Positions 4,424 to 34,673 of a DNA stretch of 58,292 nucleotides are shown here, piece by piece. A program made the position numbers and the translations under genes. The stretch is taken from the NCBI GenBank assembly GCA_046536675.1, contig JAWDMK010000002.1:1-58292 (forward strand), read 5' to 3'. The stretch comes from Candidatus Micrarchaeota archaeon (GTDB lineage: Archaea; Micrarchaeota; Micrarchaeia; Micrarchaeales; CABMGC01). The notes beneath the pieces were generated by a model. The model had not been told where the DNA came from and ran no database searches. It was given only the letters and a program-made list of their open reading frames with translations. How positions within the stretch are numbered: the stretch's first letter is position 1; each line of letters begins with the position of its first letter.

Positions 4424-4798
4424 GTGCTTTGCATGAATGCAAATATTTGGAAGGTAATGTACTACCTCTTCTTTGCAACAACATTAATTGGTGCAAACTT
4501 TGCAGCGACTACATCACCTACAGGCATTACTGCGATAAGTTCAGCTTTCTGCGCATTAGTCGGTACAGTTAGAAGCATAATTGCACTTTTTGCTGTAGTC
4601 ATGTTCTTAATAGGTGGCGTACTCTATGCTATCGCACACTTCTTACCAACAACTGGCCAGCTTAAAGGCAGTTTGCAGGGATGGGCTCTTGGTATGATTC
4701 TAGGAGGAATAGTTGGTGTAATACTAGTGATAATAGCACAGCCTATTGTAAATATGGTTGCTGGCTTCGGAAAGAGTATCTCAGCTGTAAGCTGCTGA
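4424..4798 (+). CDS. small secreted two-helix membrane protein, VirB2/TrbC-like pilin candidate
   Basis: The likely true start is the ATG at 4433 (MNANIW). It has a signal-peptide-like segment (YYLFFATTLIGANFAA/TTSP), then two long hydrophobic helices separated by the polar loop PTTGQLKGSLQGW. It is the first gene of the cluster. Confidence 0.45.
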   Translation: MLCMNANIWKVMYYLFFATTLIGANFAATTSPTGITAISSAFCALVGTVRSIIALFAVVMFLIGGVLYAIAHFLPTTGQLKGSLQGWALGMILGGIVGVILVIIAQPIVNMVAGFGKSISAVSC

Positions 4799-4827: not shown

Positions 4828-6648
4828 ATGCTTGGCATTATTGGCAGAAACGATAGGATTTTGCTTATTTTTGCTTCACTTATAATATTATTTAACATAA
4901 TCATTCTACCACCACTTTACCTCTTTGTACCTATTGTAAATTTTCTTACCTTATTAAACTTCACACTCTTTGTCCTTTACACTTTTTTACTTTTCTTTAG
5001 CAAAAGCAGGCTCAAGAACTTAATCTTAATAATTATAGTTGCATTACTTATAATTCAGGCATTAAGCCTACCATATTCGGTTATACTTAAAAAAGCTTTT
5101 GCTACACTACAGAAATTCCTACTATGGTTCTTCTTTTATATACCTATAATTTTTCTTGTCTTCTTTGGAATGTATCTATTTAAGATGAAGCCATTCAGGC
5201 ATGCTAGATTAATATCAGTATTATTCTTTCTAATAGCTGCCGCCCTTCTTTTCTACTACAATTTTGTAGTCATAATCTCTTGGCAAATGGACGACGAGAT
5301 GTTCATTCAGCTTCTATCCGCAAAGGAGATTTTAAATCTACAAAACCCTTACGAAAGCAATTATTCTAGCTTACTCTTTGAAAATTTGTCGAATTTCGGA
5401 ATAACAATGACAACAGAAAATAAGTTTATAGGCGTGCTTGATTATCCGGCGCTTTTCCCTATTGCAGATATACCTTTCATTATTTTACCTATCAAAATAG
5501 GGCTTATACTAAAGCTCCAGGTATTCATCTTCCTTTACCTATTGTTTCTCACAATAGGCTACCTCGCTAAGAAAGAAGAAACCATTAAGCCGAGCTTTCT
5601 CATTCTTACAGGAATATTGGTAAGCTTATTTGTGCTCAGCTCATCTACGCAAGCATTAATGCTTTTGCTTAGCCTTATTGCCTATTCAAAATCTGGCACT
5701 AGATATGGGTGGCTCTTTCTCGGGCTTGCAGCTTCTATTCAGGAGATGCTCTGGCTTCCTGTTCTCTTGCTGATCTTATACACTTTTTCCAGCTTTGGAC
5801 TTAAGGAAGGCGTTAAGGAGCTCTCGCTTACTTTACTTGTCTTCCTTATAATAAATGGACCTTTTATATTGCTTAGCCCATACAAATTTTTGCATAATGT
5901 AATACTCCCAGCAACCTCATACGTAATACCTAACAGCTACGGTTTGGCAGGCTACCTCATAACAGCATTTTATCCAACAGGACTTCATGCATATTCGCTT
6001 GTACCTATTGCATTCATCATTTTTTCTATGCTTCTTATGCTTTACCTAAACGATAAAAGGCTTGTATTTATAATAAGCGTTATTCCGTTCTTACTCTTGG
6101 CACACGGCATAGCCACATACTATTTATTCTTCATAGGCGCGTTTCTGATAAGCCTAGGCCTAGAGTATAAAGCTGGTAGGGATAGAATAAGCAGTTACAA
6201 AAAGCTTATACTATATGCACTTGTTATTATAGTAATCGCAACCGCTGCATATGTATTCTTTGCACACAGTGCCTATGAAAGCAGTTTTTATATCAAGGCA
6301 CTAAACCAAAGCTATGCAATAGTAAATAATACGCTTTTGTATAACCTTACATTATCATATAAGGCAAACATACCAACATTAACAACGGTATTGTCGGTTT
6401 ACAATGGTAGCGTATTACTATATGGAATAAATGAAAGTATAATTCAAGGCGCGAATGAAACGCCTGACGTAGAAATGATAGACACAAACTTCATACATTT
6501 AAACAAAAGAGGTATAGCAAGTATCGAATACAAAATTGCACTTCCACAAGGAATTGGCACATTCTATGCTGATCCTGCAATATTCAATGGGAGCTATGTA
6601 TATTACCCACCGCCGATAATAGTTTTAGCACCAGAGAATAAAGTATAA
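4828..6648 (+). CDS. polytopic membrane protein, possible GT-C-fold glycosyltransferase (DUF2029/PMT_2-like)
   Basis: 606 aa with 12 or more predicted TMs. The first large loop carries WQMDDEMF...LQNPY...LDYPALFP, resembling the D..vY...G.nPY...f.YPPl pattern of GT-C enzymes. The C-terminal ectodomain has sequons. No WWDxG motif is present, so it is not AglB. Confidence 0.35.
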   Translation: MLGIIGRNDRILLIFASLIILFNIIILPPLYLFVPIVNFLTLLNFTLFVLYTFLLFFSKSRLKNLILIIIVALLIIQALSLPYSVILKKAFATLQKFLLWFFFYIPIIFLVFFGMYLFKMKPFRHARLISVLFFLIAAALLFYYNFVVIISWQMDDEMFIQLLSAKEILNLQNPYESNYSSLLFENLSNFGITMTTENKFIGVLDYPALFPIADIPFIILPIKIGLILKLQVFIFLYLLFLTIGYLAKKEETIKPSFLILTGILVSLFVLSSSTQALMLLLSLIAYSKSGTRYGWLFLGLAASIQEMLWLPVLLLILYTFSSFGLKEGVKELSLTLLVFLIINGPFILLSPYKFLHNVILPATSYVIPNSYGLAGYLITAFYPTGLHAYSLVPIAFIIFSMLLMLYLNDKRLVFIISVIPFLLLAHGIATYYLFFIGAFLISLGLEYKAGRDRISSYKKLILYALVIIVIATAAYVFFAHSAYESSFYIKALNQSYAIVNNTLLYNLTLSYKANIPTLTTVLSVYNGSVLLYGINESIIQGANETPDVEMIDTNFIHLNKRGIASIEYKIALPQGIGTFYADPAIFNGSYVYYPPPIIVLAPENKV

Positions 6649-6707: not shown

Positions 6708-7439
6708 ATGCCAAATATAATATATGATGCATTTGAAACTTACGTAGAGAATCTAAAGCTTGTCCTACTCTTCTCCATACCTTTTATAATTGCGTTTACA
6801 ATACCACTACTTGTACCATTGCCAACATATATTACAATGGGTTCAACATTCTTGAGAACTGCAAGCGCTTTTGTAAATATTAATATGTTTGGAATTGCTG
6901 TTATAGTTGTAGCAACATTCTTCTCCCTTCTATTTCTAAGCTTTGCATTTGTTGCAATAGCATATATAGTCAAGACTAAAAGGACATATGGTAAGGTAAC
7001 AAGAGATATGATAAATAGCATAGAGAAGCATACAGGAAAAGTGTTTATTATATTCATACTTTATTCGGCTATTGTTATACTTGTAGACATAATTAGCTAC
7101 CCAACAGGCTATGCAGGTTTAATAACCTCTATTGTTGGTTTTGTATTGTTTTTGTTTATTTTCTATGCCCCTAGCGCAATAGTAATTGACAACAAAAGAA
7201 TGATAAGAGCAATAAAAGATAGTACAAAGCTTCTCTTTAGGGAGCCGCAGTACTTCCTTATTTGGCTCTTCTTAGCAATAGTTGTATTGAGCTTTTTTGA
7301 TGAGCTGTTTATACTTCTTTTTGGCACGTTTTATTCAAGGTATGCTATGCTCATATTCAGCTCTCTTTTTATACTGCCTTACTTTGTGATCTTCCAGGCA
7401 GAAGCTTATATGAAAAGATTCCCAATACTTAAGCACTAA
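6708..7439 (+). CDS. integral membrane protein, unknown function (about 6 TM)
   Basis: 243 aa hydrophobic ORF, co-directional with the cluster. I recognise no motifs. Confidence 0.6.
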   Translation: MPNIIYDAFETYVENLKLVLLFSIPFIIAFTIPLLVPLPTYITMGSTFLRTASAFVNINMFGIAVIVVATFFSLLFLSFAFVAIAYIVKTKRTYGKVTRDMINSIEKHTGKVFIIFILYSAIVILVDIISYPTGYAGLITSIVGFVLFLFIFYAPSAIVIDNKRMIRAIKDSTKLLFREPQYFLIWLFLAIVVLSFFDELFILLFGTFYSRYAMLIFSSLFILPYFVIFQAEAYMKRFPILKH

Positions 7440-7493: not shown

Positions 7494-8687
7494 ATGGGCG
7501 CCAGTAGGGTATTAATTATATCTTTATTGCTGCTTGTCCTTTACTCTGGAATATCATTTGCAGACTCTTGCTCGCTTCCGTCTATTGCATTGAATCTTAG
7601 TCCAAGCCCACTCTTTTCTGTGCTTGCACTTGCTTTTATGCTTTCCTTTCTTGTCATAGCTATAGGCGTTATGATAAATAAAGCTGTTCCTGGAACAAAG
7701 CTTGGTGAGTGGCTTAAAAATGAGTATTGGGAGATGGCGAAATCTGCTATACTTATTGCTGGTGCCATAAGCATTCTTGTATTTGCTGGAAATATATCAC
7801 TTCTCTTAATAGGCCAACAAGCCACTGGTAGTTACACCATGTCTGGACTTAACCAGATATTAAATACCTTAAGCAGCTCTTCAGGCCAGGCACTTTGCAG
7901 TATTTATGACGACATAAACAATTTTGGAAGCTCAGAGAGCGGTTTTCCAGAGAGTCCTTTAGGTATTGTAACTGGAATAGCTACTTGGAAAACGATTAAT
8001 GTTGGATATTGGCTTCCTATACCTATACCCGGAGTTGGCGCATTTACATTTGGCTCAAAGTTTCAGGTTTATAACAACCCAATGCTTGAATCTATTCCTC
8101 AAACACCGATGGGGCAATTTGAATCTATTGTGAACGATATTATAAACTTTCTCTATTTTCCAGTAAGTTCGCTTGTTGCATTAATGTACATCCTAACGCC
8201 ACTTATAGTATATATAGGTATTATGATCTTTGTGCCGTTAGGAATAATATTCAGAGCTTTCCCATTCCTAAGGCCCATTGGTGGCACATTATTTGCCTTT
8301 GGAGTAGGACTCTCTATAGTATTCCCACTTTTGATAATACTGATAAATATGCCACTTACCAGCATCTTATACAATACATTAAACTATTCCCCAATCCCAA
8401 CAACTGGAAACGAATTACTTGACGGAATAATAAAAGTGCTATTGGCTGCGGCAAATACAATATTGACTGGGATATATCCTGAATATAACTTTTTTTCTGC
8501 CATTCCATTAACCATAAGCATATATCCAGCATTAAATATATACGCCCCATACTTTATGTTTCTTTTTGCCGAATTTGTATTCTTTCTAATAGACTTAATG
8601 ATATGGTATCCTTTGGTTGATTCTATAGCAAAGTCGCTTGGCGGCACAATAAGGCTTGAGTTGGGTGGTAAACTAAGGATTGGATAA
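7494..8687 (+). CDS. cluster paralog 1: polytopic membrane protein with signal peptide
   Basis: 397 aa. Sec-type signal peptide (LLLLVLYSGISFA/DS). Shared core motif GIIFRAFPFLRPIGGTLFAFGVGLSIVFP and shared tail SLGGTIRLELGGKLRIG. Confidence 0.75.
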   Translation: MGASRVLIISLLLLVLYSGISFADSCSLPSIALNLSPSPLFSVLALAFMLSFLVIAIGVMINKAVPGTKLGEWLKNEYWEMAKSAILIAGAISILVFAGNISLLLIGQQATGSYTMSGLNQILNTLSSSSGQALCSIYDDINNFGSSESGFPESPLGIVTGIATWKTINVGYWLPIPIPGVGAFTFGSKFQVYNNPMLESIPQTPMGQFESIVNDIINFLYFPVSSLVALMYILTPLIVYIGIMIFVPLGIIFRAFPFLRPIGGTLFAFGVGLSIVFPLLIILINMPLTSILYNTLNYSPIPTTGNELLDGIIKVLLAAANTILTGIYPEYNFFSAIPLTISIYPALNIYAPYFMFLFAEFVFFLIDLMIWYPLVDSIAKSLGGTIRLELGGKLRIG

Positions 8688-9807
8688 TATGATTTCTTTC
8701 TTGCTTGACCTTAATACATGCGCATTTGCTGGCGGCGGGGTAAATGCAAATAACTGGATAGGAATAAATATGCTTGTTGTACTGCTATTTTTCACTATTG
8801 CTGCTTTGATATACGCGCTTTCTAACCTTCTTCCACCATCGCCTAGAGAAAAACTCAAGACTACTTCAAAATTCGAGATCATGCAAATGGTACTAAGTAT
8901 TTTTATTATTATAATACTTGTTGGAATTGCAAGTCTGTCATGCGACTTTACAAACTCTATAGCCGGTATGGACCCTTTCGGAGCTGCACAGATCTATATT
9001 GGCAAGCTCCTATTTGTAGATGGTATAAATCTAGCAACACATATATACTCAACATCAATAGAATTTATGATAGGTTCAGAAATAGCCAACATTGTAGGTT
9101 CACCCATTTCAATTCCCCTAGTAAAGAGCAGTGTATTAAAGTTAAGTGCTAGCCTCTCACCATCATTTGGCAACATATACAATACATATGGGGATATTGT
9201 AGTTGGTTATAATACACTAGTAATAGTAACTTTTGGCATGCTCTTCTTGAATTTTCTAATGCTTTTCATAGTTAAAGCCATAATGCTAACGGTTGTTTTG
9301 CCTGTTGCGATAGCAATGAGAACTCTTTCCTTTTTAGGACCAAGACTTAGGGAATCAGCAAACTCGTTCCTTGCGTTGGCGGTAGCCTTTTATTTTATTT
9401 ACCCACTTACGTTTGTTATGGATTCTTATATTGTTAATTGGACATATTGCATAGGAGCACAATCCACATGCAACCCATACCATAACAGTTATCCTCTAGC
9501 ATATACAGCAAGCTCAATTCCGACAAGCTCTCTCTTTGCAACATATCCAAACTACAAGCTTTTTGGATTTACTTTTACATTACCATTTGTTAACTTTTAT
9601 TCGAGCGTTCTTAGCGGTATACCTTTTCAAGACATACTTTTAGCTCCTGCATCTATTGGAATTGTAGCCCAGCAAGTCTCTGACTTTGTATTCCAAGGCA
9701 TATTCTTAATGGCACTGAATATATCTATAACGGTTGCATTTGCAATAAGCTTAACCAAGGCCCTGAATGCAGGCTTTGGCTTGAGAAGTGAAAGCATATG
9801 GAGTTGA
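8680..9807 (+). CDS. cluster paralog 2 (most divergent)
   Basis: 375 aa, overlapping the previous gene by 8 nt. The core motif is degenerate (AIAMRTLSFLGPRLRESANSFLALAVAFYFIYP). Tail is ALNAGFGLRSESIWS. Confidence 0.7.
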   Translation: MDNMISFLLDLNTCAFAGGGVNANNWIGINMLVVLLFFTIAALIYALSNLLPPSPREKLKTTSKFEIMQMVLSIFIIIILVGIASLSCDFTNSIAGMDPFGAAQIYIGKLLFVDGINLATHIYSTSIEFMIGSEIANIVGSPISIPLVKSSVLKLSASLSPSFGNIYNTYGDIVVGYNTLVIVTFGMLFLNFLMLFIVKAIMLTVVLPVAIAMRTLSFLGPRLRESANSFLALAVAFYFIYPLTFVMDSYIVNWTYCIGAQSTCNPYHNSYPLAYTASSIPTSSLFATYPNYKLFGFTFTLPFVNFYSSVLSGIPFQDILLAPASIGIVAQQVSDFVFQGIFLMALNISITVAFAISLTKALNAGFGLRSESIWS

Positions 9808-11252
9808 GGCTAGCATTGTTAACTATAGTGCTAATGCTAATTCCTTTAGCCTCAGCTAGCGGTTTAACTATAACAAGCTTTAGCGTACTTGAAAACTGGA
9901 TTTCCATACTTACACTGGCAATACTTATAGGCATATTTATAGTAAGCTTTATCTATTTTGCTGGTAGCCTGCTCAACAGCTCACGTATCAAAGAAACTGC
10001 GATAAATGAGCTTGGCCAACTGATTGGAACTGTTATAATTGCGGTTATTATAATAGCTATAGTTGAATTTTTTGGAAGCGCAAGCGTAACTGCTCTTACT
10101 GCAAATACAATAGGAGGTAATGTAATGCAGATATGCCAGCAACTATCAAATGATCAATTCAATCTTGTGAATAGCAATAGTATTACTAGCCCTACCAACA
10201 CAATATGCGCTGCTACAAATAAAGTATATTCAAATATACAGAATGGTGGTGGCAGCGGTATAGACACAGCATTATTTGCTGATTATGACTTAATGGCAAG
10301 CTATATTATTGTTGCAAACCTAACAAGCCAGATGGCGCAGAATCTAGACGCACTTTACCAGTATGAAAATTATATTGGATTTCTTTCAACACTTACTCCA
10401 AATACTACCTACTGCGAATCTGCTACACCAATACCACCATTGTTTGAAGCGTGGTGTATTGTTCCTATCAATCCTAGGGCACTAAGTGTAAGTGTTTCTT
10501 TTACACCTTATAAAGGATATACCATACTTAAGGAGATATCAAAACCCATAGAGATGCAGGGCTATATGATCTTCGAAATCTATTTGATAGAATTGCTATC
10601 TATAATAACTTTTATCTATGCATGGCCCTACCTGCTCGCTGCTGGCATAATCTTAAAGGCGAGCATGTTTACTAGAAGAGTAGGAGGTATGCTCATAGGA
10701 ATAGTAATAGGAGGACTTATAATATTTCCTATAATATTCCTTATGGAATATGTCTCTTTAAACAATGCAACACTTGGGCCTATAGGGGCAAGTCCAAATA
10801 CAATACCAGTATTTACAATGTACGGTAATACACTTAAAGGAAATCCTGTTGTTTACAATTCAAACACAATAAACTTCTTTGTGTTTCCAAACGCAACAAA
10901 TATAGTAAATTATTATGGCTGTTATCCTTATGGAGGAAATATTTACTTGAGCGAGCTAGGCATATCGGCTTATTTTATGTTTCCTGGCGTGGGGATATAC
11001 AATCTGCTTGCATATGGAATAGGAGGTATGGTAGTAGGGAGCTTGCCTGATATACCACTAACTGTTGTTTCGTGCCAACCTCAAAATGCGCTTACGCTTA
11101 TATTCCATTTTGCAGATCTATACGGAATTATAGGGGTTACAGGCTATATACTACCAATAATAAATATATTGATACTGATCTCCGCAATCAAAGGGATATC
11201 TCAGCTTATGGGTGGTGATACAAATCTGCTTGGATTAGGTAGACTTGTATGA
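9798..11252 (+). CDS. cluster paralog 3 with signal peptide and large extracytoplasmic loop
   Basis: 484 aa, overlapping the previous gene by 10 nt. Signal peptide LMLIPLASA/SG. Core motif GIILKASMFTRRVGGMLIGIVIGGLIIFP. Tail QLMGGDTNLLGLGRLV. Confidence 0.75.
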   Translation: MELRLALLTIVLMLIPLASASGLTITSFSVLENWISILTLAILIGIFIVSFIYFAGSLLNSSRIKETAINELGQLIGTVIIAVIIIAIVEFFGSASVTALTANTIGGNVMQICQQLSNDQFNLVNSNSITSPTNTICAATNKVYSNIQNGGGSGIDTALFADYDLMASYIIVANLTSQMAQNLDALYQYENYIGFLSTLTPNTTYCESATPIPPLFEAWCIVPINPRALSVSVSFTPYKGYTILKEISKPIEMQGYMIFEIYLIELLSIITFIYAWPYLLAAGIILKASMFTRRVGGMLIGIVIGGLIIFPIIFLMEYVSLNNATLGPIGASPNTIPVFTMYGNTLKGNPVVYNSNTINFFVFPNATNIVNYYGCYPYGGNIYLSELGISAYFMFPGVGIYNLLAYGIGGMVVGSLPDIPLTVVSCQPQNALTLIFHFADLYGIIGVTGYILPIINILILISAIKGISQLMGGDTNLLGLGRLV

Positions 11253-12355
11253 ATAAAAGAATAATACTGTTGATTATACTTGCTGCAATTATTCTTGCTA
11301 GAACTTCTTATGCACAAACACCTGATCCTTGCTACTATCTATATAATGGAGAGCTACCAAGCACATTTGGCGCTTTGAGTAATGCTTCAACATACAAAGG
11401 GCTTATAGGCTATTCGATGCTCATAATACTCACAGTGCTTATGATTGTTGCCTTCTTGTATGCGATAGGAATAGCCTTCAAGATAAGCAGCCTCATTTCG
11501 TTTTCTAAAAATGAGATACTCGAAAATGTGCTTAACTTTATCCTAATATTATTTGTAGCTGGCGGAATTGCAGGGGTAGATGGTATTGTTATAGGCATTG
11601 CGCAATTTAGCGCATCTGCGGTGAGCACAACCCAGCCAAGCATTACGAGCACATCTAGCCTATACCACAGTGCCTGTGAATATTACTATGGCGATGCAAT
11701 TGGTGAGATAGCAAACCTAATCCCACTTGCTCTAACAGTTTTTATGTTCAACATTGTTTCTTTGATTCAATTTAACTTTATGCCAAATGGATTTGGCGTT
11801 TCTTTACAGCCATTCGCATGGATTGGCTTGCTTTCTAAAATGGCGAGTTCGTTTAGCTTGCCTATTGTTGCTATAACTGGAATAGAGCTTATTAATGTAT
11901 ACCTGCTAGCGATAATATATTACATTTTCCCTCTTTTCCTTTACCTTGGAATACTTTTCCGCACTTTTCCATGGACTAGGCCAATCGGAGGGGCTCTTCT
12001 AGGATTATTTATCTCATTTTATGTGTTTTATCCTGCACTAATATACGCGATTTCAAGCATCACCGCTTCATCAAGTATGCAGACTCTTGCACAAAGCACT
12101 ATAACAACTCTTGCAAACAAGCTACAAGGAAGCCTTACAAGTGGTCTAACAACATCGATTAATCCTGGCCTAATGGTCTCATCAACATTTGCTTCTTTAA
12201 TAATCACATATGCGGAAATTATCGCTATGGGTGGTATAAATACTATAGGTATATTGATCTCTTTAGTTATATGTTTTGACCTCATAGAAGCGTTTGGAGA
12301 CTTGTTGGGTGCACCATCGCTTGCGCATGGTGGCATTCTTAGGAAGGTGATATGA
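11249..12355 (+). CDS. cluster paralog 4 with signal peptide
   Basis: 368 aa with a 4 nt ATGA-type overlap. Signal peptide AAIILARTSYA/QT. Core motif GILFRTFPWTRPIGGALLGLFISFYVFYP. Tail FGDLLGAPSLAHGGILRKVI. Confidence 0.75.
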   Translation: MNKRIILLIILAAIILARTSYAQTPDPCYYLYNGELPSTFGALSNASTYKGLIGYSMLIILTVLMIVAFLYAIGIAFKISSLISFSKNEILENVLNFILILFVAGGIAGVDGIVIGIAQFSASAVSTTQPSITSTSSLYHSACEYYYGDAIGEIANLIPLALTVFMFNIVSLIQFNFMPNGFGVSLQPFAWIGLLSKMASSFSLPIVAITGIELINVYLLAIIYYIFPLFLYLGILFRTFPWTRPIGGALLGLFISFYVFYPALIYAISSITASSSMQTLAQSTITTLANKLQGSLTSGLTTSINPGLMVSSTFASLIITYAEIIAMGGINTIGILISLVICFDLIEAFGDLLGAPSLAHGGILRKVI

Positions 12356-13402
12356 TTGTTTAGCATTGATTATCTGTTAATGCAAGAATGCTTAAACAGC
12401 ATAAACAGTTTCCTCACCGCGCCATACACAGCATGGTTTCCAATAACTTTGATAGCTGCGACATTAATTATAGTTATACTTGCTGCAATCTATTTATTTG
12501 CCCCACTCATGGGAAGAGAGGATATAAGAAGGAATATAGGCATAATGATTTACCAAACACTATTCGGCATTGTTCTAATAATGGCATTTGGCATATTTGC
12601 AACTTGGCTGTGCTCCTTTAACGCAGAAAGCCTCCTACAAAGTCTAAACCTAATCCTAGTGACTAGCATAGCCCCTCAAAATGCAAACCTATATGAAACC
12701 GCAGTATATGATCTTTACTGGTTTACGAATCATGGGGCTCTTGCAAATGCAAATAATTTCCTGTTCTTGTTATACGCTGGTTTGAATATTGGACCATCGC
12801 TAAGCATTGAAATAAACTTTATACCTGGCATCCAAAATCTGGGAATTTCGGTAAATGCCCCATTCACCGCTAGCAGCGTTCTAGGCTCTTATTTCAGTTA
12901 TATGAGCCAAGCACTCAGCTGGCTCTTCATAATAAATGACTTGCAGTTTATTATAATATCGGCTGCACCAATAATCTTTGCCATATTTGTATCTATAGGA
13001 CTTATTGCTAGGCTTTTTGGCTTCTCGCGCAATTTTGGTGGCTCACTAATAGCACTTGGCGTTGGTATAGGCTTTGTATATCCACTAATGGTAAGCATAA
13101 CATATGGTTTCATAAATGTAGCCTATAGCCAGCTTTATAATAGTATATTTATAAATATAGCTACAAGTACGTTTGGCACAAACATACAGAGCGCGCTTGC
13201 AAGTTTAGCCTCAGGTTCGGCACTGGTTAATCTATTCTTAAGTAGTATTTATGCTATAGTAAACCTAGTAGGCTTTACAGCTACTGCTTCTCTTATTTTA
13301 CCCATGCTCAACTTTGTCGTTGTTAATACTTTTGTAATTGATTTCTCCCAGGCTTTTGGAGAGAGGTTAGATTTTATGAGTTTGCTTACAAATATAATAT
13401 AG
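12356..13402 (+). CDS. cluster paralog 5
   Basis: 348 aa, abutting the previous stop. Core motif GLIARLFGFSRNFGGSLIALGVGIGFVYP. Tail AFGERLDFMSLLTNII. It ends in TAG followed immediately by TGA. Confidence 0.75.
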   Translation: MFSIDYLLMQECLNSINSFLTAPYTAWFPITLIAATLIIVILAAIYLFAPLMGREDIRRNIGIMIYQTLFGIVLIMAFGIFATWLCSFNAESLLQSLNLILVTSIAPQNANLYETAVYDLYWFTNHGALANANNFLFLLYAGLNIGPSLSIEINFIPGIQNLGISVNAPFTASSVLGSYFSYMSQALSWLFIINDLQFIIISAAPIIFAIFVSIGLIARLFGFSRNFGGSLIALGVGIGFVYPLMVSITYGFINVAYSQLYNSIFINIATSTFGTNIQSALASLASGSALVNLFLSSIYAIVNLVGFTATASLILPMLNFVVVNTFVIDFSQAFGERLDFMSLLTNII

Positions 13403-13409
13403 TGATGTT

Positions 13410-14558
13410 ATGAATATTAAAAGGATTAATATTACCATTGCATTCTTTGTTGCATTAATTATTTTATCACAGATTGCAGGTGCGAAAATATCACCTCCAC
13501 CACCTCCAATACCTCCAATAGGTGGTGGAGGTGGTGGGCCTGGAAATAATGTACCGCAGAGCGTGGGCTACTGCCCTAACCAATTTAGCATAAATGCGAT
13601 TGCACCATGGTACTGCAGCCAGATAAATCAGGCGGCTTATAAAGTATTTACAGATTGGGAGCCCCTTCTTATGCTGGCGGTCTTGTTTAGCTTCATGATT
13701 GCTGCAGTAATTTTTGTAGCAGGTATTGCAGCAAGAAACAACAAGCTTAGAAGTTATGGCATAGGTGAATTTTACGAGGCGGGGGCTAGCCTTATCTTTG
13801 TTGTATTCTTTATGCTTCTTGCGGCGCTAATCTTTGGTATAATACCTGGCTTATATATAGGGGAAGACCCATATAACACAAGTCTTACATATATTTACAA
13901 TACAATAGATGCAACCCAGGGCTTACTTACAGCATTATATAATCCGGCTATGCTTGCTTATTTCTACACAAGCATAAGCATAACAGTAAGTACTCTAGCC
14001 ACAGTCTCAACGATATTAGGGTACGCTGCTATACCACTTGAGATACTGTTTATTATACCGGCGACTGCACTCTCTTCCTTGCTTGTAGAAGGTCTTCTGG
14101 TGCTTTACGCTGAATTCTACCTTATACTATTTGCTATGTATGCCTCTATACCTGTGTTCCTTATACCAGGTATATTCCTACGCTCCATAATGCCCACAAG
14201 GAGTGTTGGAGGTCTTCTCATAGGTGCTGCAATTGGTTTTTACTTTATACTCCCGACTCTCTTCTCAATAGCATTCTTCTTTACTTCTAAAGGTACTATG
14301 CAAACATTTATTGCAGCAACAGCACAGCTTAATAGTATATCACAGGGTAGCAACGCTATAACAAATGGGGCATTGCCAAATGGCCAAAATTCCATACCGC
14401 AGGAGATAAAGACAATACAAGAAGGCATGGGCTCTTTCTGGATCTCTGTTATATTCTATCCAGCACTCATACTTGCATTAACATACTTCTCTATAACAAC
14501 GATAGCAGACCTTCTTGGCGGAATGCGTCCAAGTGGGGGATTATTAAGCAGAATATAA
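13410..14558 (+). CDS. cluster paralog 6 with signal peptide and Pro/Gly linker
   Basis: 382 aa. Signal peptide LIILSQIAGA/K, then SPPPPPIPPIGGGGGGPG. Core motif GIFLRSIMPTRSVGGLLIGAAIGFYFILP. Tail LLGGMRPSGGLLSRI. Confidence 0.75.
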   Translation: MNIKRINITIAFFVALIILSQIAGAKISPPPPPIPPIGGGGGGPGNNVPQSVGYCPNQFSINAIAPWYCSQINQAAYKVFTDWEPLLMLAVLFSFMIAAVIFVAGIAARNNKLRSYGIGEFYEAGASLIFVVFFMLLAALIFGIIPGLYIGEDPYNTSLTYIYNTIDATQGLLTALYNPAMLAYFYTSISITVSTLATVSTILGYAAIPLEILFIIPATALSSLLVEGLLVLYAEFYLILFAMYASIPVFLIPGIFLRSIMPTRSVGGLLIGAAIGFYFILPTLFSIAFFFTSKGTMQTFIAATAQLNSISQGSNAITNGALPNGQNSIPQEIKTIQEGMGSFWISVIFYPALILALTYFSITTIADLLGGMRPSGGLLSRI

Positions 14559-14614: not shown

Positions 14615-15436
14615 GTGACCAATGTGCCCAACTTCCAGATATTAATCTTTGGCATATTTGCAACTGCAGCCTTTGCGTTCGCAATAGTTGCATCTACATT
14701 TCCGGCATCTCTGCTTAAGTTTGTTCTTGGTTTGCTTGCTCTATTCTTTGCTGTATTAGCCTTTTCAATGAGGTACTACTACTATATAGTAATACCATTC
14801 ATTCATGCAAAAGGCAAAACAATTCTGCTTGATGAGAAGGAGCCTTTCATTATTGCGCCAAATGGAAATGCTATAATAGGCAAAGAAGGTGGCTTTACAT
14901 ATGCTACAATGTTCATTAGAATTCCTATCTACTCTTCTTCTACAGAGATGAGCGAAGAGGAGAGGTACGACTTTTCAAATTTATTTAGCAAGCTGGTTTC
15001 GCTAAGCAAGAACCCGATAAAGATAACAACACAGCTCAACATATTAAACAAGGATGACTATATAAACAAAGTAAGAGACAAGCTTAATGATGCTGAAACA
15101 AGATATAATACTACACTTGGCAAGAAGGATGCAAAGCCAGAAGAGGTGGAAAGGGCAAAGGGCGAGGTTACAATGTGGCATAACCTTCTTGACGCGATTT
15201 CAAATGCTAATTCACTCATCGCTATATCTTATGCCTCTGTAACAGCTATGGGTGGGAATGATGAAGAGGCGATTAACCTTGCAATGCAGAGTGCAAATGA
15301 GATTATGGCGGGTATTAACTCAACATACGGAGTTGTTTCAGACATTATATCTACTCCTGAACTTCTAATGCTTATTGAACCAGATTATATGATTCCATTC
15401 TCAACAATAAACCAACAGATAAAGGGTATGGGATAA
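14615..15436 (+). CDS. TM-hairpin plus cytoplasmic domain protein, paralog A (VirB3/VirB4-N-like hypothesis)
   Basis: 273 aa with a GTG start. Two N-terminal TMs precede a roughly 200 aa soluble domain that begins ILLDEKEPFIIAPNGNAIIGKEGGFTYATMFIRIP. It lies upstream of the ATPase. Confidence 0.6.
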   Translation: MTNVPNFQILIFGIFATAAFAFAIVASTFPASLLKFVLGLLALFFAVLAFSMRYYYYIVIPFIHAKGKTILLDEKEPFIIAPNGNAIIGKEGGFTYATMFIRIPIYSSSTEMSEEERYDFSNLFSKLVSLSKNPIKITTQLNILNKDDYINKVRDKLNDAETRYNTTLGKKDAKPEEVERAKGEVTMWHNLLDAISNANSLIAISYASVTAMGGNDEEAINLAMQSANEIMAGINSTYGVVSDIISTPELLMLIEPDYMIPFSTINQQIKGMG

Positions 15437-16260
15437 TGGATGAAACCACGCTTATCTATATTGCAGTTTCTGCGATGGCGATACTGCTTGTGCTAGTAGA
15501 AGCTACAACCTATGGAATTTTTGCTATACCAATAGCTGTGTTTGCAATAATCGCCATACTTACCCTTCTGCTTATAAATTATGCTGATTTCATTATATTC
15601 CCGCTTATAACAAGAATATTAAAAATGAGGATAATACCTGCTAAGAATTACTATATCCCAAAGGAGCAGGATTGTGTTATAAAGAGTGCAAATGGGGTAT
15701 ATTATGCAACAGGTTATCTTACCGCAAACCTATATAATTATGTATTTACAAGCGAGGAAAGCGAAGAAGATGAAACCCTGCTTATTGATGCACCAACAAG
15801 ATGGGAAAGGGCGATGATGAGCATCAAGTTTCCATTTAAGTATAATCTAATAGTTGCAGCACAGGATGTGCAGAGCTACAGAGAGGAGCTTGAAGGTAAG
15901 CTAAGTCTATTAAATTTCAAGCTTTCGAGGGAGATGAGCAGTGGCAACCCGAGCCAAATGGCGATAGATGATCTTCAGAGGCAGATAAGAATAGTGCAAG
16001 CCAGGATTGATAGACTTTCTAGCGGTGAAAAACCTATTCAGAGCTTAATGTACATTGAAAGTACAGCGGTAGGGGTAAGCGAAAAGGCAGCGATGGATGC
16101 ACTTTCTAACCAGCTAAGGCAGATTCAGACAGTAATGAGTGGATTTGACTTAAACATTACAAGAATAACCGGAAGAGAACTTTATTATCTTTTTAAGTTT
16201 AATTATTTTATTCCAATAAGTATGAGAGATTTGATGAGTTTATTTGCATACCAGAAATAG
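15436..16260 (+). CDS. TM-hairpin plus cytoplasmic domain protein, paralog B
   Basis: 274 aa. Its start overlaps the previous stop by 1 nt. It has the same architecture, with the soluble domain beginning PKEQDCVIKSANGVYYATGYLTANL, then a coiled segment. Confidence 0.6.
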   Translation: MDETTLIYIAVSAMAILLVLVEATTYGIFAIPIAVFAIIAILTLLLINYADFIIFPLITRILKMRIIPAKNYYIPKEQDCVIKSANGVYYATGYLTANLYNYVFTSEESEEDETLLIDAPTRWERAMMSIKFPFKYNLIVAAQDVQSYREELEGKLSLLNFKLSREMSSGNPSQMAIDDLQRQIRIVQARIDRLSSGEKPIQSLMYIESTAVGVSEKAAMDALSNQLRQIQTVMSGFDLNITRITGRELYYLFKFNYFIPISMRDLMSLFAYQK

Positions 16261-17767
16261 TGTTGCTATGAGCCTAATAAAAATTCAAAACATAATGAGC
16301 AACGAACTCGCAAAGAGAGTATTCATAAGCAAACCTCCAGAGCCGCCAGCCAATTATCTGCTAAACGATCCAACAAATGCGATATTTCTCGGTCTTACAA
16401 AGATATTTAATGTTCCGTTTACCTGGACATTTGCAAATCTTACCAACCCACATATCGCTGTTGTAGGTATAACAGGAGCAGGAAAGAGCTTCCTTGTTAA
16501 AACGTTCCTTATAAGGGCCAGCTATGTATGGAATGCGAATGCGATAATAATAGACTGGGCTGGAGAATATAAAGCCTGGGTAAAGCAGAGTGGAGGCACT
16601 GTTGTATCTCTAGGAAAAGGAGATTACCTTAATATAATGGATTTAATAGGGATAAAACCTTTAGACAGGGTAAAGCAAATTATGAACTCATTTGAGATAC
16701 TTACAGATATTGGAGATTACCCAGAGCAAAGAAGACTCACACAAGAGGCGATAGAACAGGCTTATGTGAATGCAGGTTTCAATCTAGCAGAGATTCCAGA
16801 CTCTAGCAAAGAGCCACCAACCTTAACAAATGTTATAGCACTTCTACAGGAGAAGCTGCAAGAAGGAACATACGAGTATCCTGCAGAACTTGAAAATGCG
16901 ATTTATAGGCTTAGACAATTCGTAAGGGAAGGCGAAGACTATTTTGCAAAAAAGAGCACATTAGATCTAGGCAAGCTTGCCTCATCAGGTCTTGTAGATA
17001 TTGATTTATCAGGCTTACCTGACGAAACGTTCAGGGCGCTTGCTGCTTTGTTCATATTGCAATCATTAAAAGAAAGAATGAGGATAGAAGGATGGAGCGC
17101 CTCTAAAGGGATTAAGGCGATAGTTGTTCTTGACGAGGCTTGGAAAATAGCTGGCGATGAGAGAAGTGATGCTGTAACTATAGTGAGGGAAGGCAGGAAG
17201 TACCAATTTGCACTAATAGTTGCTTCCCAAAACCCTACAGACATTAACGAAGCTATATTCTCAAACGTTGGCACAAATATTATATTAAGGGTAAAATTCG
17301 AGAGGTTTATGGATTACTTGCAAGACTCACTAAACTTCTCTTCATTTATAAGGGGAGAAATAGGCAAATTTGGCGTTGGACAAGCTGCTGTTGACATGTC
17401 GTTCCAAACATCTGTAAAGTTTCCAGAAACATTCTTGCTTGAGAGGATTATAGGCGAAGTACCGCTTGATGTATATACACTCCTTATTAAAGATATACTT
17501 ACCAATGATGAGCTTAAGAATCCAAATATATCAAGCGAGTATTACTTCGAAAAGATAAGCTTAAAGAGCAGGCTTATTGATGTTAATGTGCCAAATGAAG
17601 CGATTGATAAGCTTTTTGAAATACTCGATTCGCAAGACAAGATTATAGACTCAAGGAGTTTTGCAAAACTCCTTCTAAGCTATGGAGTTGACAAAGAAAG
17701 CATTATTTCATTCTTTAGATATCTTGGCGTAGAGGATGCACTTATAACCAGGATCTTTGCAGGCTGA
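16244..17767 (+). CDS. FtsK-HerA superfamily P-loop ATPase of VirB4/TrbE/HerA(DUF87)-like type
   Basis: Walker A is HIAVVGITGAGKSF and Walker B is AIVVLDEAWK. REGRKYQFALIVASQNPTDI...NIILRV resembles the arginine-finger/sensor block of VirB4 and HerA-like ATPases. The likely true start is the ATG at 16268 (MSLIKIQ). At about 500 aa it is short for VirB4. Confidence 0.75.
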   Translation: MHTRNSVAMSLIKIQNIMSNELAKRVFISKPPEPPANYLLNDPTNAIFLGLTKIFNVPFTWTFANLTNPHIAVVGITGAGKSFLVKTFLIRASYVWNANAIIIDWAGEYKAWVKQSGGTVVSLGKGDYLNIMDLIGIKPLDRVKQIMNSFEILTDIGDYPEQRRLTQEAIEQAYVNAGFNLAEIPDSSKEPPTLTNVIALLQEKLQEGTYEYPAELENAIYRLRQFVREGEDYFAKKSTLDLGKLASSGLVDIDLSGLPDETFRALAALFILQSLKERMRIEGWSASKGIKAIVVLDEAWKIAGDERSDAVTIVREGRKYQFALIVASQNPTDINEAIFSNVGTNIILRVKFERFMDYLQDSLNFSSFIRGEIGKFGVGQAAVDMSFQTSVKFPETFLLERIIGEVPLDVYTLLIKDILTNDELKNPNISSEYYFEKISLKSRLIDVNVPNEAIDKLFEILDSQDKIIDSRSFAKLLLSYGVDKESIISFFRYLGVEDALITRIFAG

Positions 17768-18071
17768 TCAAATGGGAGAGACATTTATTGTAAACAGAAT
17801 TGAATTAAGGCGAAACCTTACCATTCTGGGAGTAAGCGAGCTTAATATAGATAAGCTTGAGGCAGAGCTTGATAAAAGGCATAGGCATGTAAATGCTGTT
17901 GCATTTGCAGAACTCTTACAAAAAGCAGGCCTAAGAAGGGAAGAGATAATAAATATATTTAGAAGGATAGGGGTTGATGATGTAAAAATAACAGATATAA
18001 TGAATACACTTGATGAAGAAAAGATAAATGAAGCTTATGGCAGAGTAGTTGAACTTGATGTAGGTGATTAG
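17757..18071 (+). CDS. small helical protein homologous to the C-terminal tail of the preceding ATPase
   Basis: 104 aa. LGVSELNIDKLEAELDKRHRHVNAVAFAELLQKAGLRREEIINIFRRIGVDDVKITDIM aligns by eye with the ATPase C-terminus VNVPNEAIDKLFEILDSQDKIIDSRSFAKLLLSYGVDKESIISFFRYLGVEDALITRIF. Confidence 0.6.
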   Translation: MQADQMGETFIVNRIELRRNLTILGVSELNIDKLEAELDKRHRHVNAVAFAELLQKAGLRREEIINIFRRIGVDDVKITDIMNTLDEEKINEAYGRVVELDVGD

Positions 18072-18459: not shown

Positions 18460-19182
18460 GTGCCTGAAGAAGCAATAACTCCAAAAGTAGAGGAGGTTGT
18501 ATTTGCAGGAACAATTAATGGAAAGATAGATGATCTGCTACCACTAGTTTCACAGCTCCCCGCTTATACAGCGAAGATAGAAGAAAACAAGCTTGTAATA
18601 GCAAGAGTTGAAAGTAGAGATATACATAAGAAACCTTTCCTCTTCTTTGTGTTCAAGATAAGCGAATCAGGGGTAGAGGTTATATACTCGATAGCACCAG
18701 ATACAAGCGTAAGGATGAGGAGGCTGTTTGTACTTAAGAATTTACTCTCTGTGCTTTCCATAATTTCTGATTACTTCAAGATAGATGAAAAGAAGTTCTA
18801 CCAATATCTTGACTCTTCTATAGATGATGTATTAAACAGTCTTTCAGAAAACTATAGCACGATATTTAACAGATACGACGCATTGCTAACAGAATATAGG
18901 GAACTAAAAAGACTTAACCTTGAGCTCTCTGCAGCGAATAGAAATCTTACAATACAAACCTCACAGCTCAACGAAGAGAACAAGCAGCTTAAGGCGCAAC
19001 TTGAGGCATTGCAAACATACTCTGATGAATCACTTATGGCTATGATACAGGACTGGATAGAATCCCACAATAACTCCATAGATATAGACGAGTTTGCAAA
19101 GATATACAAGGTACCTTCGCCAAGGGTGGAGCAGATACTTAACAAGATGGTCTCTCTGGGCTACATCGAGCTTAAGGGATAA
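18460..19182 (+). CDS. cytoplasmic protein: N-domain, coiled coil and C-terminal winged-HTH-like domain
   Basis: 240 aa with a GTG start. Heptad-rich centre (EYRELKRLNLELSAANRNLTIQTSQLNEENKQLKAQLEALQ). The C-terminus IDEFAKIYKVPSPRVEQILNKMVSLGYIE is wHTH-like. Confidence 0.55.
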   Translation: MPEEAITPKVEEVVFAGTINGKIDDLLPLVSQLPAYTAKIEENKLVIARVESRDIHKKPFLFFVFKISESGVEVIYSIAPDTSVRMRRLFVLKNLLSVLSIISDYFKIDEKKFYQYLDSSIDDVLNSLSENYSTIFNRYDALLTEYRELKRLNLELSAANRNLTIQTSQLNEENKQLKAQLEALQTYSDESLMAMIQDWIESHNNSIDIDEFAKIYKVPSPRVEQILNKMVSLGYIELKG

Positions 19183-29209: not shown

Positions 29210-29322
29210 AAAACCGCTTTTAATAATTGAATAAACTTATATTTTGCCCTTCAATGAAAAGGTGAATTAAAAATTAAAAAGCTATTAAAGTTTAAATATA
29301 TAGATATTTATAGATATTTGTT

Positions 29323-29395
29323 AGCTCCATCGTCTAGCGGTCAAGGATAACGGGCTCTGGACCCGTTGACGCCAGTTCGAATCTGGCTGGAGCTA
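29323..29395 (+). tRNA. tRNA-Gln (anticodon CTG)
   Basis: Cloverleaf folded by hand. Acceptor AGCTCCA/TGGAGCT, anticodon stem ACGGG/CCCGT with loop CTCTGGA, T-arm GCCAG-TTCGAAT-CTGGC. No CCA is encoded. An AT-rich TATA-like region lies upstream. Confidence 0.85.
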
Positions 29396-29406
29396 TTAGT
29401 GATTTT

Positions 29407-29826
29407 ATGGAAGGGTACAAAGAGCATGTAATTGTGTGTGGTTATGGTATTGTTGGAGAGCGCATAGTCGATATTCTATTAGAGCACAAAGTGAATGTTG
29501 TAGTTATAGAGATAGACCATAAGAAGGCAGAGCTTCTCAGAGATAGGGGCATACCTGTAGTTGAGGGCGACGCAACAACATCAAAGGCTTTGAAGGAAGC
29601 CGGTATAGCTGATGCAAAAGCTATAGCTATAGCAATGGATGACGATGCTAAAAATCTGTTTGCCACAATCACAGCAAAGAGCCTAAATGAAAACATTATA
29701 ATTGCAACAAGAGCGAATGACGACCTCTTTGAAACCAAGCTTACCGATGCTGGTGCAAACTTTGTAGCAACGCCAAACAAATCAGCGAGTGACGAGCTCT
29801 TCAATGAGATAATAAAGGGGCTTTAG
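29407..29826 (+). CDS. soluble TrkA-N/RCK NAD-binding domain protein
   Basis: 139 aa. Rossmann start HVIVCGYGIVGERIV, then VVVIE...GDATTSKALKEAGIADAKAIAIA. Confidence 0.8.
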   Translation: MEGYKEHVIVCGYGIVGERIVDILLEHKVNVVVIEIDHKKAELLRDRGIPVVEGDATTSKALKEAGIADAKAIAIAMDDDAKNLFATITAKSLNENIIIATRANDDLFETKLTDAGANFVATPNKSASDELFNEIIKGL

Positions 29827-29836
29827 AGGGCTTTAG

Positions 29837-30616
29837 ATGGCCGAGCTAACCGAAAAATCAGGCAATGTAATAATTTCAGCTACGATAATTTCACTAATCA
29901 TAATAATTTTTTCTCTTATTGCTCTTCTTTACATAACCCATAACATATATCTTGATGCATATTATATTATAGATACTTTCTTTGATGCATCTAATAGCGC
30001 ATCGACATGGGATCTTGCACAACTTTCACTCTTATTACCTCCTCAAAAACTTGCTATAATTTTGAGCATAGTAATTATTGATAATATAGGCAAGTTACTT
30101 ATAATAAGCTTCGTAATAGCGGCGGTAATTGATATAATTTCATATGCAAATCTTGAGAAATACATAAGTGCGGCACATGCAAGAAGGATGAGGGATCATA
30201 TTATAATATGTGGTTATAATCCACTCGCAGAAAGGCTTATAAGAAAGTTAAATACTCTTAAGAAAAAACACAAGATCGTTGTGATAGATAATAATGAAGA
30301 AATTGTTGTTGAGCTTCACAAAAGGCATATACCTATTGTGGAAGGGAGTTTTACTAATCCGAAGATCCTAAAGCTTGCATCTGCAGACAAAGCAAAGATC
30401 ATTGTATTTGTAGAGCAGGATGATGCAAAGAATCTGATAGGGATTGTAGAAGCAAAAAGACTTAATAAGGAAATAAAAGCACTTGTGCGAAGCACAAAAG
30501 AAGAAAATATGACTAAAATGTATAGAGTTGGGGCTGACATGTGTGTCTTGCCAGAATATATTGCGGGAATAAGCATTGGTGAATTTTTACTAAAGCACAT
30601 AGGGGTGCATAAATGA
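29837..30616 (+). CDS. two-TM membrane protein fused to an RCK domain (channel-like, no canonical K+ filter)
   Basis: 259 aa. The membrane part has two long TMs, and I saw no T-V-G-Y-G sequence. The RCK part is HIIICGYNPLAERLI...VEGSFTNPKILKLASADKAKIIVF. Confidence 0.6.
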   Translation: MAELTEKSGNVIISATIISLIIIIFSLIALLYITHNIYLDAYYIIDTFFDASNSASTWDLAQLSLLLPPQKLAIILSIVIIDNIGKLLIISFVIAAVIDIISYANLEKYISAAHARRMRDHIIICGYNPLAERLIRKLNTLKKKHKIVVIDNNEEIVVELHKRHIPIVEGSFTNPKILKLASADKAKIIVFVEQDDAKNLIGIVEAKRLNKEIKALVRSTKEENMTKMYRVGADMCVLPEYIAGISIGEFLLKHIGVHK

Positions 30617-32588: not shown

Positions 32589-32592
32589 GCGT

Positions 32593-34666: not shown

Positions 34667-34673
34667 CGGTTAT

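Follow-up and report, generated by a model that had tools for sequence, protein, structure and literature searches.

The stretch of DNA analysed here (hereafter the window; 58,292 nucleotides of contig JAWDMK010000002.1, from a Candidatus Micrarchaeota archaeon) carries an array of six consecutive open reading frames (ORFs), P1 to P6, which lie on the plus strand, encode proteins of 348-484 amino acids (aa), and fill positions 7494-14558. An earlier sequence-only reading of this stretch had proposed that these ORFs are six tandem paralogous genes for polytopic membrane proteins, and had mentioned VirB6, TrbL and CedA, polytopic proteins of type IV secretion systems (T4SSs) and of related machines, as a topological analogy only. 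The six ORFs were found at exactly the proposed positions, and every core and tail string quoted in that reading is present in the sequence. In a MAFFT alignment of P1-P6, the shared core takes the form G-h-h-x-[RK]-x5-R-x2-GG ... P, and is accompanied by an LGG-type tail at the C terminus. When each paralog was scored against a hidden Markov model (HMM) built from the other five, the scores ranged from 27.9 to 50.5 bits, compared to a maximum of -3.4 bits for 200 locally shuffled copies that kept the local hydrophobicity, and a maximum of 1.4 bits for reversed sequences and the neighboring membrane proteins U1, U2, D1, and D2. The similarity is thus real rather than a product of composition or hydrophobic bias, and P1-P6 are true paralogs.

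Within the alignment of 98-121 diverse family members, the near-invariant positions (P1 numbering) are R254, R260, G263, G264, P278, and G383, i.e., two arginines, a GG pair, the proline that follows, and one glycine of the tail. The degenerate core previously noted for P2 was confirmed, and the strict motif is missing from P2 in 70 of 71 related loci. The related tail that had been ascribed to all six proteins is clear in P1, P3, P4, and P6; in P2 and P5 it is degenerate, as it also is in their relatives, where the LGG tail is mostly missing from these two positions (it is present at the P5 position in 17 of 71 loci). Four Sec-type signal peptides had also been proposed. Signal-like segments do occur in P1, P3, P4, and P6, although hydropathy alone speaks for their being of the Sec type. 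Across loci, a signal-like N terminus is found mostly in P1, P4, and P6, in 41 of 71 loci for P3, and is mostly absent from P2 and P5. The TTG start listed for P2 at 8680 is probably too far upstream; the ATG at 8689 is the likelier start, because a database protein of 372 aa is 99.7% identical over 372 aa.

None of the six paralogs matched any Pfam, NCBIfam, or PHROG model, nor did any curated transporter or permease model in these collections match them at any threshold. Likewise, 98 diverse family members had no Pfam match, including none to PF04610 (TrbL/VirB6) at E<=0.01, and searches of PDB sequences with the family profiles returned nothing meaningful. The earlier statement that the motif belongs to no named family can therefore stand. 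A profile search of 1.84 billion cluster representatives recovered 2,731 clusters at 50% identity with E<=1e-3, and 1,749 with E<=1e-10; at over 2,700 clusters, this is a large family that is unannotated in Pfam, NCBIfam, and PHROGs. All named carriers are Candidatus Micrarchaeota or Micrarchaeia (DPANN), and all of the proteins are named 'hypothetical protein'; looking up divergent cluster representatives yielded no names. A genome scan in which each species was represented by a single genome yielded 80 loci, almost all of them labelled Micrarchaeota; locus L060 comes from the cultivated Ca. Micrarchaeum sp. A_DKE, whose genome is complete. Since the scan used P4-specific motifs, the taxonomic range is a lower bound. 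Loci L042, L071, L026, L053, and L077-L079 are labelled Saccharimonadales bacterium, Methanothrix, 'bacterium' or Marsarchaeota, and carry the full Micrarchaeota-type cluster; these contigs are probably mis-binned or mislabelled.

Exactly six strong family-HMM matches in tandem were observed in 70 loci; wherever the number deviated, the array was truncated at a contig end or disrupted by frameshifts. In 69-70 of the 70 loci, the gene at a given position is the ortholog of the window paralog at that position, with median identities of 32-41% to the ortholog compared to 15-25% between paralogs. The best conserved paralog is P6 (position 6 in 70 of 70 loci; median identity 40.9%). The most divergent lineages found (25-35% identity) also carry P1-P6 in order, and neighboring genes of the array either overlap or lie end to end, the median gaps being -1 to 7 nucleotides. 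The conservation of number, order, and paralog-specific traits implies that the duplications occurred before the radiation of the phylum and that all six copies have since been kept as distinct genes. On this evidence of conservation, P1-P6 are six ancient, non-redundant subunits rather than a recent or variable amplification. The sequence-only reading had argued against redundancy, and the persistence of these features in ~70 genomes across the phylum strongly supports that view, with copy number constant among relatives. The phylum-wide retention of all six distinct copies is the signature of obligate partners.

A different explanation for the expansion would be that the six genes are interchangeable or alternative copies amplified for dosage or surface variation, as has been proposed for trwI/trwJ/trwL of the Bartonella Trw system. 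Amplification of VirB6 is known in host-associated bacteria, Rickettsia having five VirB6-like proteins (PMC2653234) and Bartonella several TrwI paralogs per genome, and the number of pilin genes next to the array varies between one and four. However, the constant copy number and fixed order of P1-P6, the 1:1 orthology across the phylum of paralogs that differ so much from one another, and the conserved, paralog-specific loss of motifs point to ancient subfunctionalization, and we consider variable amplification very unlikely. A search with TrwI recovered several distinct TrwI/VirB6 proteins from single Bartonella genomes (P0278/P0314, P0296/P0336, and P0317/P0319/P0322), an instance of VirB6 amplification in host-associated bacteria.

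The array forms the center of a conserved gene cluster with the order PIL (1-4 copies), U1 (variable), U2, P1-P6, D1, D2, D3, D4, D5, and D6 (Table 1). In the ~55-65 loci with flanks long enough to show it, the genes run in the order pilin, U2, P1-P6, D1, D2, VirB4-like ATPase, and the array thus sits between the genes for a candidate pilin and a VirB4-type ATPase. PIL lies upstream of the array in 54 loci. Among 49 PIL orthologs, 19 match PF04956 (TrbC/VirB2; best E 9.7e-8) and 15 match PF18895 (T4SS_pilin), with the ortholog in locus L081 exceeding the gathering score of the T4SS_pilin model (29.2 versus 26.6 bits). Pilin fusions were also encountered in some Micrarchaeota, in the form of 366-687-aa proteins with a large N-terminal extension, whose C-terminal ~90 residues constitute a full pilin domain (L049:1270-3333, L066:728-2146, L066:2162-4195, and L017:940-2040). 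The ATPase, D3, consists of an ATPase domain and a C-terminal extension, and has neither TM (transmembrane) helices nor the N-terminal domain of VirB4. Its Walker A motif (GITGAGKS) lies at residue 75 and its Walker B motif (AIVVLDE) at residue 292, and each locus has one such D3-type HerA/VirB4 ATPase. Pfam matches were obtained to DUF87 (5e-17), AAA_10 (8e-13), and the TraG P-loop domain (3e-9), and NCBIfam matches to CedD (8e-19), CedB (2e-17), the CD1110 VirB4-like family (2e-16), and TraC (3e-16). None of the NCBIfam matches comes near its equivalog cut-off; against the CedB and CedD models, D3 scores 68 and 63 bits, about a tenth of the required 600 and 700, so that it is not an equivalog of either. 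By tblastn, D3 matched 2,916 plasmids, 2,617 of them conjugative, the best match being TraC with 24% identity over 77% of the query.

The remaining members of the cluster are less readily assigned. U1 is found near the cluster in 32 loci only, sometimes lies elsewhere or is inverted, and has no Pfam match, and its membership in the machine is doubtful. U2 immediately precedes the array in all of the 60 loci in which it occurs; the window copy and ~25 orthologs had no Pfam match. The orthologs of D1 and D2 are related to each other (hhalign probability 97.1%, E 7.6e-11), and neither protein has a Pfam or PDB sequence match or an hhalign link to VirB2, B3, B4, B5, B6, B8, B11, or D4 of R388, so that to regard D1 and D2 as detached parts of VirB3 or of the VirB4 N terminus would be conjecture. 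Residues 424-505 of D3 align to residues 1-82 of D4 (BLASTP; 32% identity, E 7e-10), and the D4 orthologs have no Pfam match. D5 (the window copy and many orthologs) gives weak Pfam matches to ZapB, PCI, EAP30, and HTH_Cmi2_C. D6, for which neither the window copy nor the orthologs had a Pfam match, has a predicted outer region of ~500 aa rich in N-x-S/T sequons and a cytoplasmic domain of ~215 aa, and could possibly be an adhesin or receptor of the system. A scan for sigma-70 promoters, of no informative value in an archaeon, returned counts equal to those of shuffled sequences.

Table 1. Genes of the array and of the surrounding cluster in the window
Gene	Position	Strand	Length (aa)	Characteristics
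P1	7494-8687	+	397	Signal-like N terminus; full core GIIFRAFPFLRPIGG; LGG...GG.LR tail; ortholog at position 1 in 70/70 loci
P2	8680-9807	+	375	No signal-like segment; core and tail degenerate; N-terminal hairpin most pilin-like
P3	9798-11252	+	484	Largest outer region; core GIILKASMFTRRVGG; position 3 in 69/70 loci; ortholog length 327-694 aa
P4	11249-12355	+	368	Core GILFRTFPWTRPIGG; tail LLGAPSLAHGGILRKVI
P5	12356-13402	+	348	No signal-like segment; core GLIARLFGFSRNFGG; tail divergent
P6	13410-14558	+	382	Signal-like N terminus; Pro/Gly-rich linker; core GIFLRSIMPTRSVGG; tail LLGGMRPSGGLLSRI
PIL	4424-4798	+	124	Signal-like N terminus and two hydrophobic helices; VirB2/TrbC-type T4SS pilin candidate
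U1	4828-6648	+	606	Polytopic membrane protein; many hydrophobic segments; C-terminal outer domain
U2	6708-7439	+	243	Polytopic membrane protein; ~6 hydrophobic segments; directly upstream of P1
D1	14615-15436	+	273	Two N-terminal TM helices and ~210-aa soluble domain; directly after P6 in 65 loci
D2	15436-16260	+	274	Paralog of D1; two N-terminal TM helices; start overlaps D1 stop codon
D3	16244-17767	+	507	VirB4/TraC/CedB-like (HerA-FtsK superfamily) ATPase
D4	17757-18071	+	104	Stand-alone homolog of the D3 C-terminal ~80 aa; after D3 in 56 loci
D5	18460-19182	+	240	Coiled-coil and winged-helix; in 50 loci
D6	19366-21699	+	777	Bitopic; N-terminal hydrophobic segment; TM 531-561; at cluster end in 50 loci

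The window is chromosomal, with genes for Topo VI B, aIF2-gamma, ribosomal protein S6e, CDC48, and MoxR nearby, and the same housekeeping genes flank the cluster in distant genomes, with DUF655, Rpb4-like, and MoxR genes on the upstream side and Topo VI B on the downstream side. VirB4-type ATPases and VirB2-type pilins are hallmark conjugation genes, and could indicate that the cluster is an integrated, self-transferring conjugative element in the manner of archaeal conjugative plasmids or integrative and conjugative elements. However, the synteny with core genes is kept in distant genomes, the GC content of the cluster equals that of its flanks, the array has no relatives in IMG/VR, and the nearest tRNA gene (tRNA-Gln, 29322-29396) lies ~7.6 kb past the end of the cluster. 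In addition, no second, coupling-protein-like ATPase was found in the 10-kb flanks, although relaxases and integrases were not explicitly searched for. That the cluster is a self-transferring element of this kind is therefore extremely unlikely. Judging from its gene content and setting, the cluster is a domesticated T4SS-type module, similar in this respect to the Ced and Ted systems (PMC9905601) and the T4SS of Patescibacteria (PMC12102498).

The hydropathy profiles of P1-P6 share a single plan, consisting of an optional signal-like segment, TM1, TM2, a less hydrophobic region of 100-170 residues, TM3, a turn bearing the core motif, TM4, a variable region, TM5, and a short tail. Hydropathy and AlphaFold2 (AF2) models together predict the same topology for all six proteins, with the N terminus outside, five TM helices, a large outer loop between TM2 and TM3, and the C terminus inside; positively charged residues occur in the TM1-TM2 loop, the TM3-TM4 loop, and the tail of all six. 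The AF2 models of P1 (predicted local distance difference test, pLDDT, 85.6; predicted template modelling score, pTM, 0.80) and P4 (pLDDT 84.9; pTM 0.79) are both confident. The region between TM2 and TM3 would form a helical outer domain with a beta-hairpin. The tight turn between TM3 and TM4, which bears the near-invariant R-x5-R-x2-GG, would be cytoplasmic, as would the LGG...GG.LR tail that four of the six also carry. VirB6 itself, in the work of Jakubowski et al. from 2004, reportedly has a topology that agrees with this plan (N terminus outside, ~5 TM helices, a large outer loop, and C terminus inside). Individual paralogs in some loci contain large lineage-specific insertions. The P3 ortholog at L081:10001-11989 reaches 662 aa and shows faint Ig/SprB matches, and the ORFs at the P6 position of L075 (12062-15775) and the P2 position of L024 (6193-8643) reach 1,237 and 816 aa, respectively; all of the insertions apparently fall in predicted outer regions.

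A relationship between the array and the pilin was detected by profile comparison. The pilin profile matched that of the family with a probability of 66% (hhalign; E 5e-5) and that of the P2 orthologs with a probability of 85.7% (E 5.4e-6), in the latter case aligning pilin residues 44-107 to P2 residues 28-94, over the TM1-TM2 hairpin. Probabilities for P1, P4, and P5 were 15-17%, and the matches to P3 and P6 were not significant. When an HMM built from pilins only was searched against 5,299 ORFs, its matches were confined to pilins, nine P2 orthologs, and four pilin-fusion proteins, with no other class of membrane protein among them. These profile matches indicate that the N-terminal hairpin of the family is homologous to the cognate pilin. 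A pilin-like hairpin has likewise been described by Beltran et al. in CedA/CedA1 and in VirB6/VirB2, with a VirB2-VirB6 probability of 66.6% and an E-value of 0.001 (PMC9905601 supplement), which is of the grade obtained here.

Homology to the pilin would also be expected if P1-P6 were pilus-associated structural subunits (i.e., minor pilins, or parts of the base, tip or adhesin) rather than a channel, with the pilin-like hairpin entering or capping a VirB2-type filament and the variable outer domains being displayed. The wide range of ortholog lengths contributed by the outer regions, from P3 to the longest P6-position ORF, the faint Ig/SprB matches of the L081 P3 ortholog, and the presence in relatives of larger proteins ending in a pilin domain are all compatible with such a role. 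However, each of the six proteins has three further TM helices, and a cytoplasmic position is predicted for the parts that are best conserved (the tail and the turn with R-x5-R-x2-GG), which does not fit with extraction into a filament. Moreover, such a role would leave the cluster, in which U2 is perhaps the only other candidate and not a convincing one, with no VirB6-like protein. We therefore regard a role as pilus subunits as unlikely.

Structural comparison gave a further, though weak, connection to VirB6. When the P4 model was searched against 350,542 PDB chains with Foldseek, the top match was TrwI/VirB6 (8rt9_F; probability 0.97, E 0.095, template modelling scores, or TM-scores, of 0.35/0.42), and four further TrwI chains were within the top 27 matches; no VirB6 other than TrwI (7O3V, 8RT9, and 8RTD) has a structure in the PDB. 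The P1 model matched TrwI at rank 13 (E 1.6, probability 0.18), yet with the best TM-score and root-mean-square deviation in the list. A search of BFVD returned insignificant matches, with a TrbL-annotated protein at rank 6. Taking the gene order, the pilin-like hairpin, the shared topology, and these fold matches together, P1-P6 would constitute the VirB6/CedA-equivalent, hetero-oligomeric membrane core of a chromosomally fixed, T4SS- or conjugation-derived machine found across Micrarchaeota, a reading to which we assign a probability of roughly 60%. Equivalence is meant here in the sense of working like VirB6 or CedA, and is proposed here with moderate confidence, whereas a common ancestry with VirB6 is unproven. 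To call the resemblance to VirB6, TrbL, and CedA a topological analogy only, as the sequence-only reading did, thus understated it with respect to the pilin/VirB4 context, the hairpin, and the fold match of P4, although no profile homology to TrwI-type VirB6 was found.

Several observations count against a VirB6-equivalent core. VirB6 was not the top Foldseek match of the P1 model, and all Foldseek matches were insignificant (E>0.05, TM-score<0.45). In hhalign comparisons, the family profiles matched the TrwI-type VirB6 profile with a probability of 0.1%, and the orthologs of each paralog with <1%, although the VirB6 profile was narrow (TrwI and 34 relatives that are at least 50% identical to TrwI; effective number of sequences, Neff, 3.2) and a control comparison of TrwL with the TrwI profile was also null, indicating that this set-up is insensitive. 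None of P1-P6 matched the Pfam TrbL/VirB6 family (PF04610) even at E<=1, and the PIL copy of the window itself matches no Pfam pilin model. Finally, any homology of P1-P6 to CedA, CedE, and TedA would be conjectural, and NCBIfam offered no match for the six.

The undetectable sequence homology to VirB6 and the insignificant fold matches, as well as the two flanking polytopic proteins U1 and U2 without an assigned function, would also suit a membrane machine of another kind (for instance a transporter, or a complex for lipid scavenging or envelope biogenesis) whose genes only share their location and transcription with the T4SS-like ones. Such an arrangement is difficult to reconcile with the pilin and U2 preceding the array, and D1, D2, and the ATPase following it, with minimal gaps in ~55-65 loci, or with the hairpin homology that links the family to the pilin, and no transporter family was matched at any threshold. 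We consider it quite improbable.

If P1-P6 do form the core of a T4SS-derived machine, a hetero-oligomeric ring or channel is the natural inference, because the six-fold number, the order, and the features of each paralog are conserved. The six genes would probably be translated in equal amounts, which fits with neighboring genes that abut or overlap, and a ring could then be built from one copy of each product. On its outer side, polymerization of the VirB2-type pilin may be seated or seeded by the helical outer domains together with the pilin-like hairpins, while on the cytoplasmic face the arginine-bearing TM3-TM4 loops and the LGG...GG.LR tails may dock the motor, presumably a hexamer of the D3 ATPase tethered by the two-TM adaptors D1 and D2. 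ATP hydrolysis would power extraction of pilins and extension of the pilus, as well as the passage of substrate through ring and pilus, and the bitopic, putatively glycosylated D6 may have a part in contact. If Ced and Ted are a guide, the likeliest substrate would be single-stranded DNA from host or sister cells. Micrarchaeota are obligate partners of Thermoplasmatales, and because of this dependence, the presence of the cluster in nearly every locus examined, and the constancy of its chromosomal neighbors, a role in acquisition from the host is plausible.

More speculatively, the machine could be a core-genome conduit in Micrarchaeota, and perhaps in other DPANN, in which the six VirB6-like paralogs form a true hetero-hexamer that is symmetry-matched to a hexameric VirB4-type motor. 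Such a conduit would serve the symbiosis, with a VirB2-type pilus as the route by which DNA or other macromolecules are drawn out of the Thermoplasmatales host. We advance this possibility tentatively, as less likely than not; if it is true, this would be the first hetero-oligomeric T4SS channel, and would correspond in archaea to the T4SS on which epibiotic growth of Patescibacteria depends.

The closest known systems are Ced and Ted of Crenarchaeota, in which CedA/CedE or TedA are VirB6-like, CedA1 or TedC is the VirB2-like pilin, and CedB/CedD or TedB are VirB4-like (PMC9905601, PMC11868833). Like the Micrarchaeota cluster, these are chromosomal, domesticated T4SS sets composed of a pilin, a polytopic protein, and a VirB4-like ATPase, with no coupling protein nearby, and in both cases the N terminus of the polytopic protein is homologous to the cognate pilin. 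Gain of paralogs is known from Saccharolobus, with functional differentiation of CedA from CedE and of CedB from CedD; CedE has five TM helices, the number predicted for P1-P6, and D3 scores best against the NCBIfam CedD and CedB models. In contrast with the one or two VirB6-like proteins of Ced and Ted, six paralogs are present here, in a DPANN phylum with a symbiotic lifestyle, and D3, lacking TM helices and an N-terminal domain, is accompanied by D1 and D2 as well as the mini-protein D4.

The likeness to VirB6/TrbL proteins (PF04610, e.g., TrwI of R388) lies in their polytopic nature, their genes being next to those for VirB2 and VirB4, the common topology, and the pilin-like hairpin. They differ in that there is no sequence or profile similarity, TM-scores reach only 0.24-0.42, and neither the R-x5-R-x2-GG turn nor the LGG tail is a VirB6 motif. 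According to the paper on the R388 structure, TrwI is a homo-pentamer; the array, by contrast, consists of six distinct genes. The Trp that is essential in VirB6 (PMC2653234) has no invariant counterpart in the P1-P6 family. Among bacteria, the rvh system of Rickettsiales (five VirB6-like proteins) and VirB6-1 to VirB6-4 of Anaplasma provide a parallel, as organisms with an obligate host association and a reduced genome have kept several divergent VirB6-type genes side by side, with variable flanking or outer regions (PMC2653234, PMC7648143). These VirB6 proteins are, however, bacterial, much larger, and equipped with recognizable PF04610 domains, and they belong to an effector-secreting T4SS of diderms, for which a hetero-oligomer is likewise unproven.

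The closest ecological parallel is the chromosomal T4SS of Patescibacteria, also known as the Candidate Phyla Radiation (CPR), the components of which have been reported to be essential for epibiotic growth (PMC12102498). It too is chromosomally fixed in ultra-small episymbionts and includes VirB4, VirB6-like, and VirB2-like components, theirs being without a relaxase (PMC12102498). Unlike the cluster described here, it is bacterial, belongs to the mating-pair formation class FATA (MPF-FATA), and has single VirB6 homologs that are detectable with standard profiles, with no six-fold array. What sets the Micrarchaeota cluster apart from these systems is the fixed, phylum-wide set of six subunits, the DPANN host, and an apparently split motor, in which an ATPase core is separate from its membrane adaptors. 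Literature searches returned no description of this cluster in Micrarchaeota, and to our knowledge no dedicated transfer machine has been defined for the phylum.

The cluster provides a concrete, phylum-wide candidate for the means by which DPANN archaea, with their tiny genomes, acquire genes, lipids, and nucleotides from their hosts, and its presence in the cultivated A_DKE makes the machine accessible to experiment. For the T4SS field, it may represent a natural experiment, with six fixed and differentiated subunits in place of a VirB6-type platform that is usually homo-oligomeric; a platform of this composition, together with the split motor, would bear on how the symmetries of pilus, channel, and motor are matched.

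Other genes in the window include a type IV pilus/archaellum-type module at 31389-36645 (+), with a T2SSE/PilB-like ATPase gene at 32593-34095 and T2SSF platform genes at 34674-35654 and 35644-36645; given this module in addition to the T4SS-like cluster, two unrelated filament machines are encoded within 20 kb. On the minus strand, the region 36642-45368 encodes three large predicted surface proteins with Laminin_G_3/ConA-like lectin domains (one of 893 aa, one of 718 aa with a PQQ beta-propeller, and one of 1,124 aa with four LamG_3 domains and Big_1), which are candidates for host adhesion. Three consecutive genes with TrkA_N (RCK) domains, at 29407-31341 (+), follow the tRNA-Gln gene, and a 506-aa exosortase/archaeosortase (EpsH-like) membrane protein is encoded at 48192-49712 (+).

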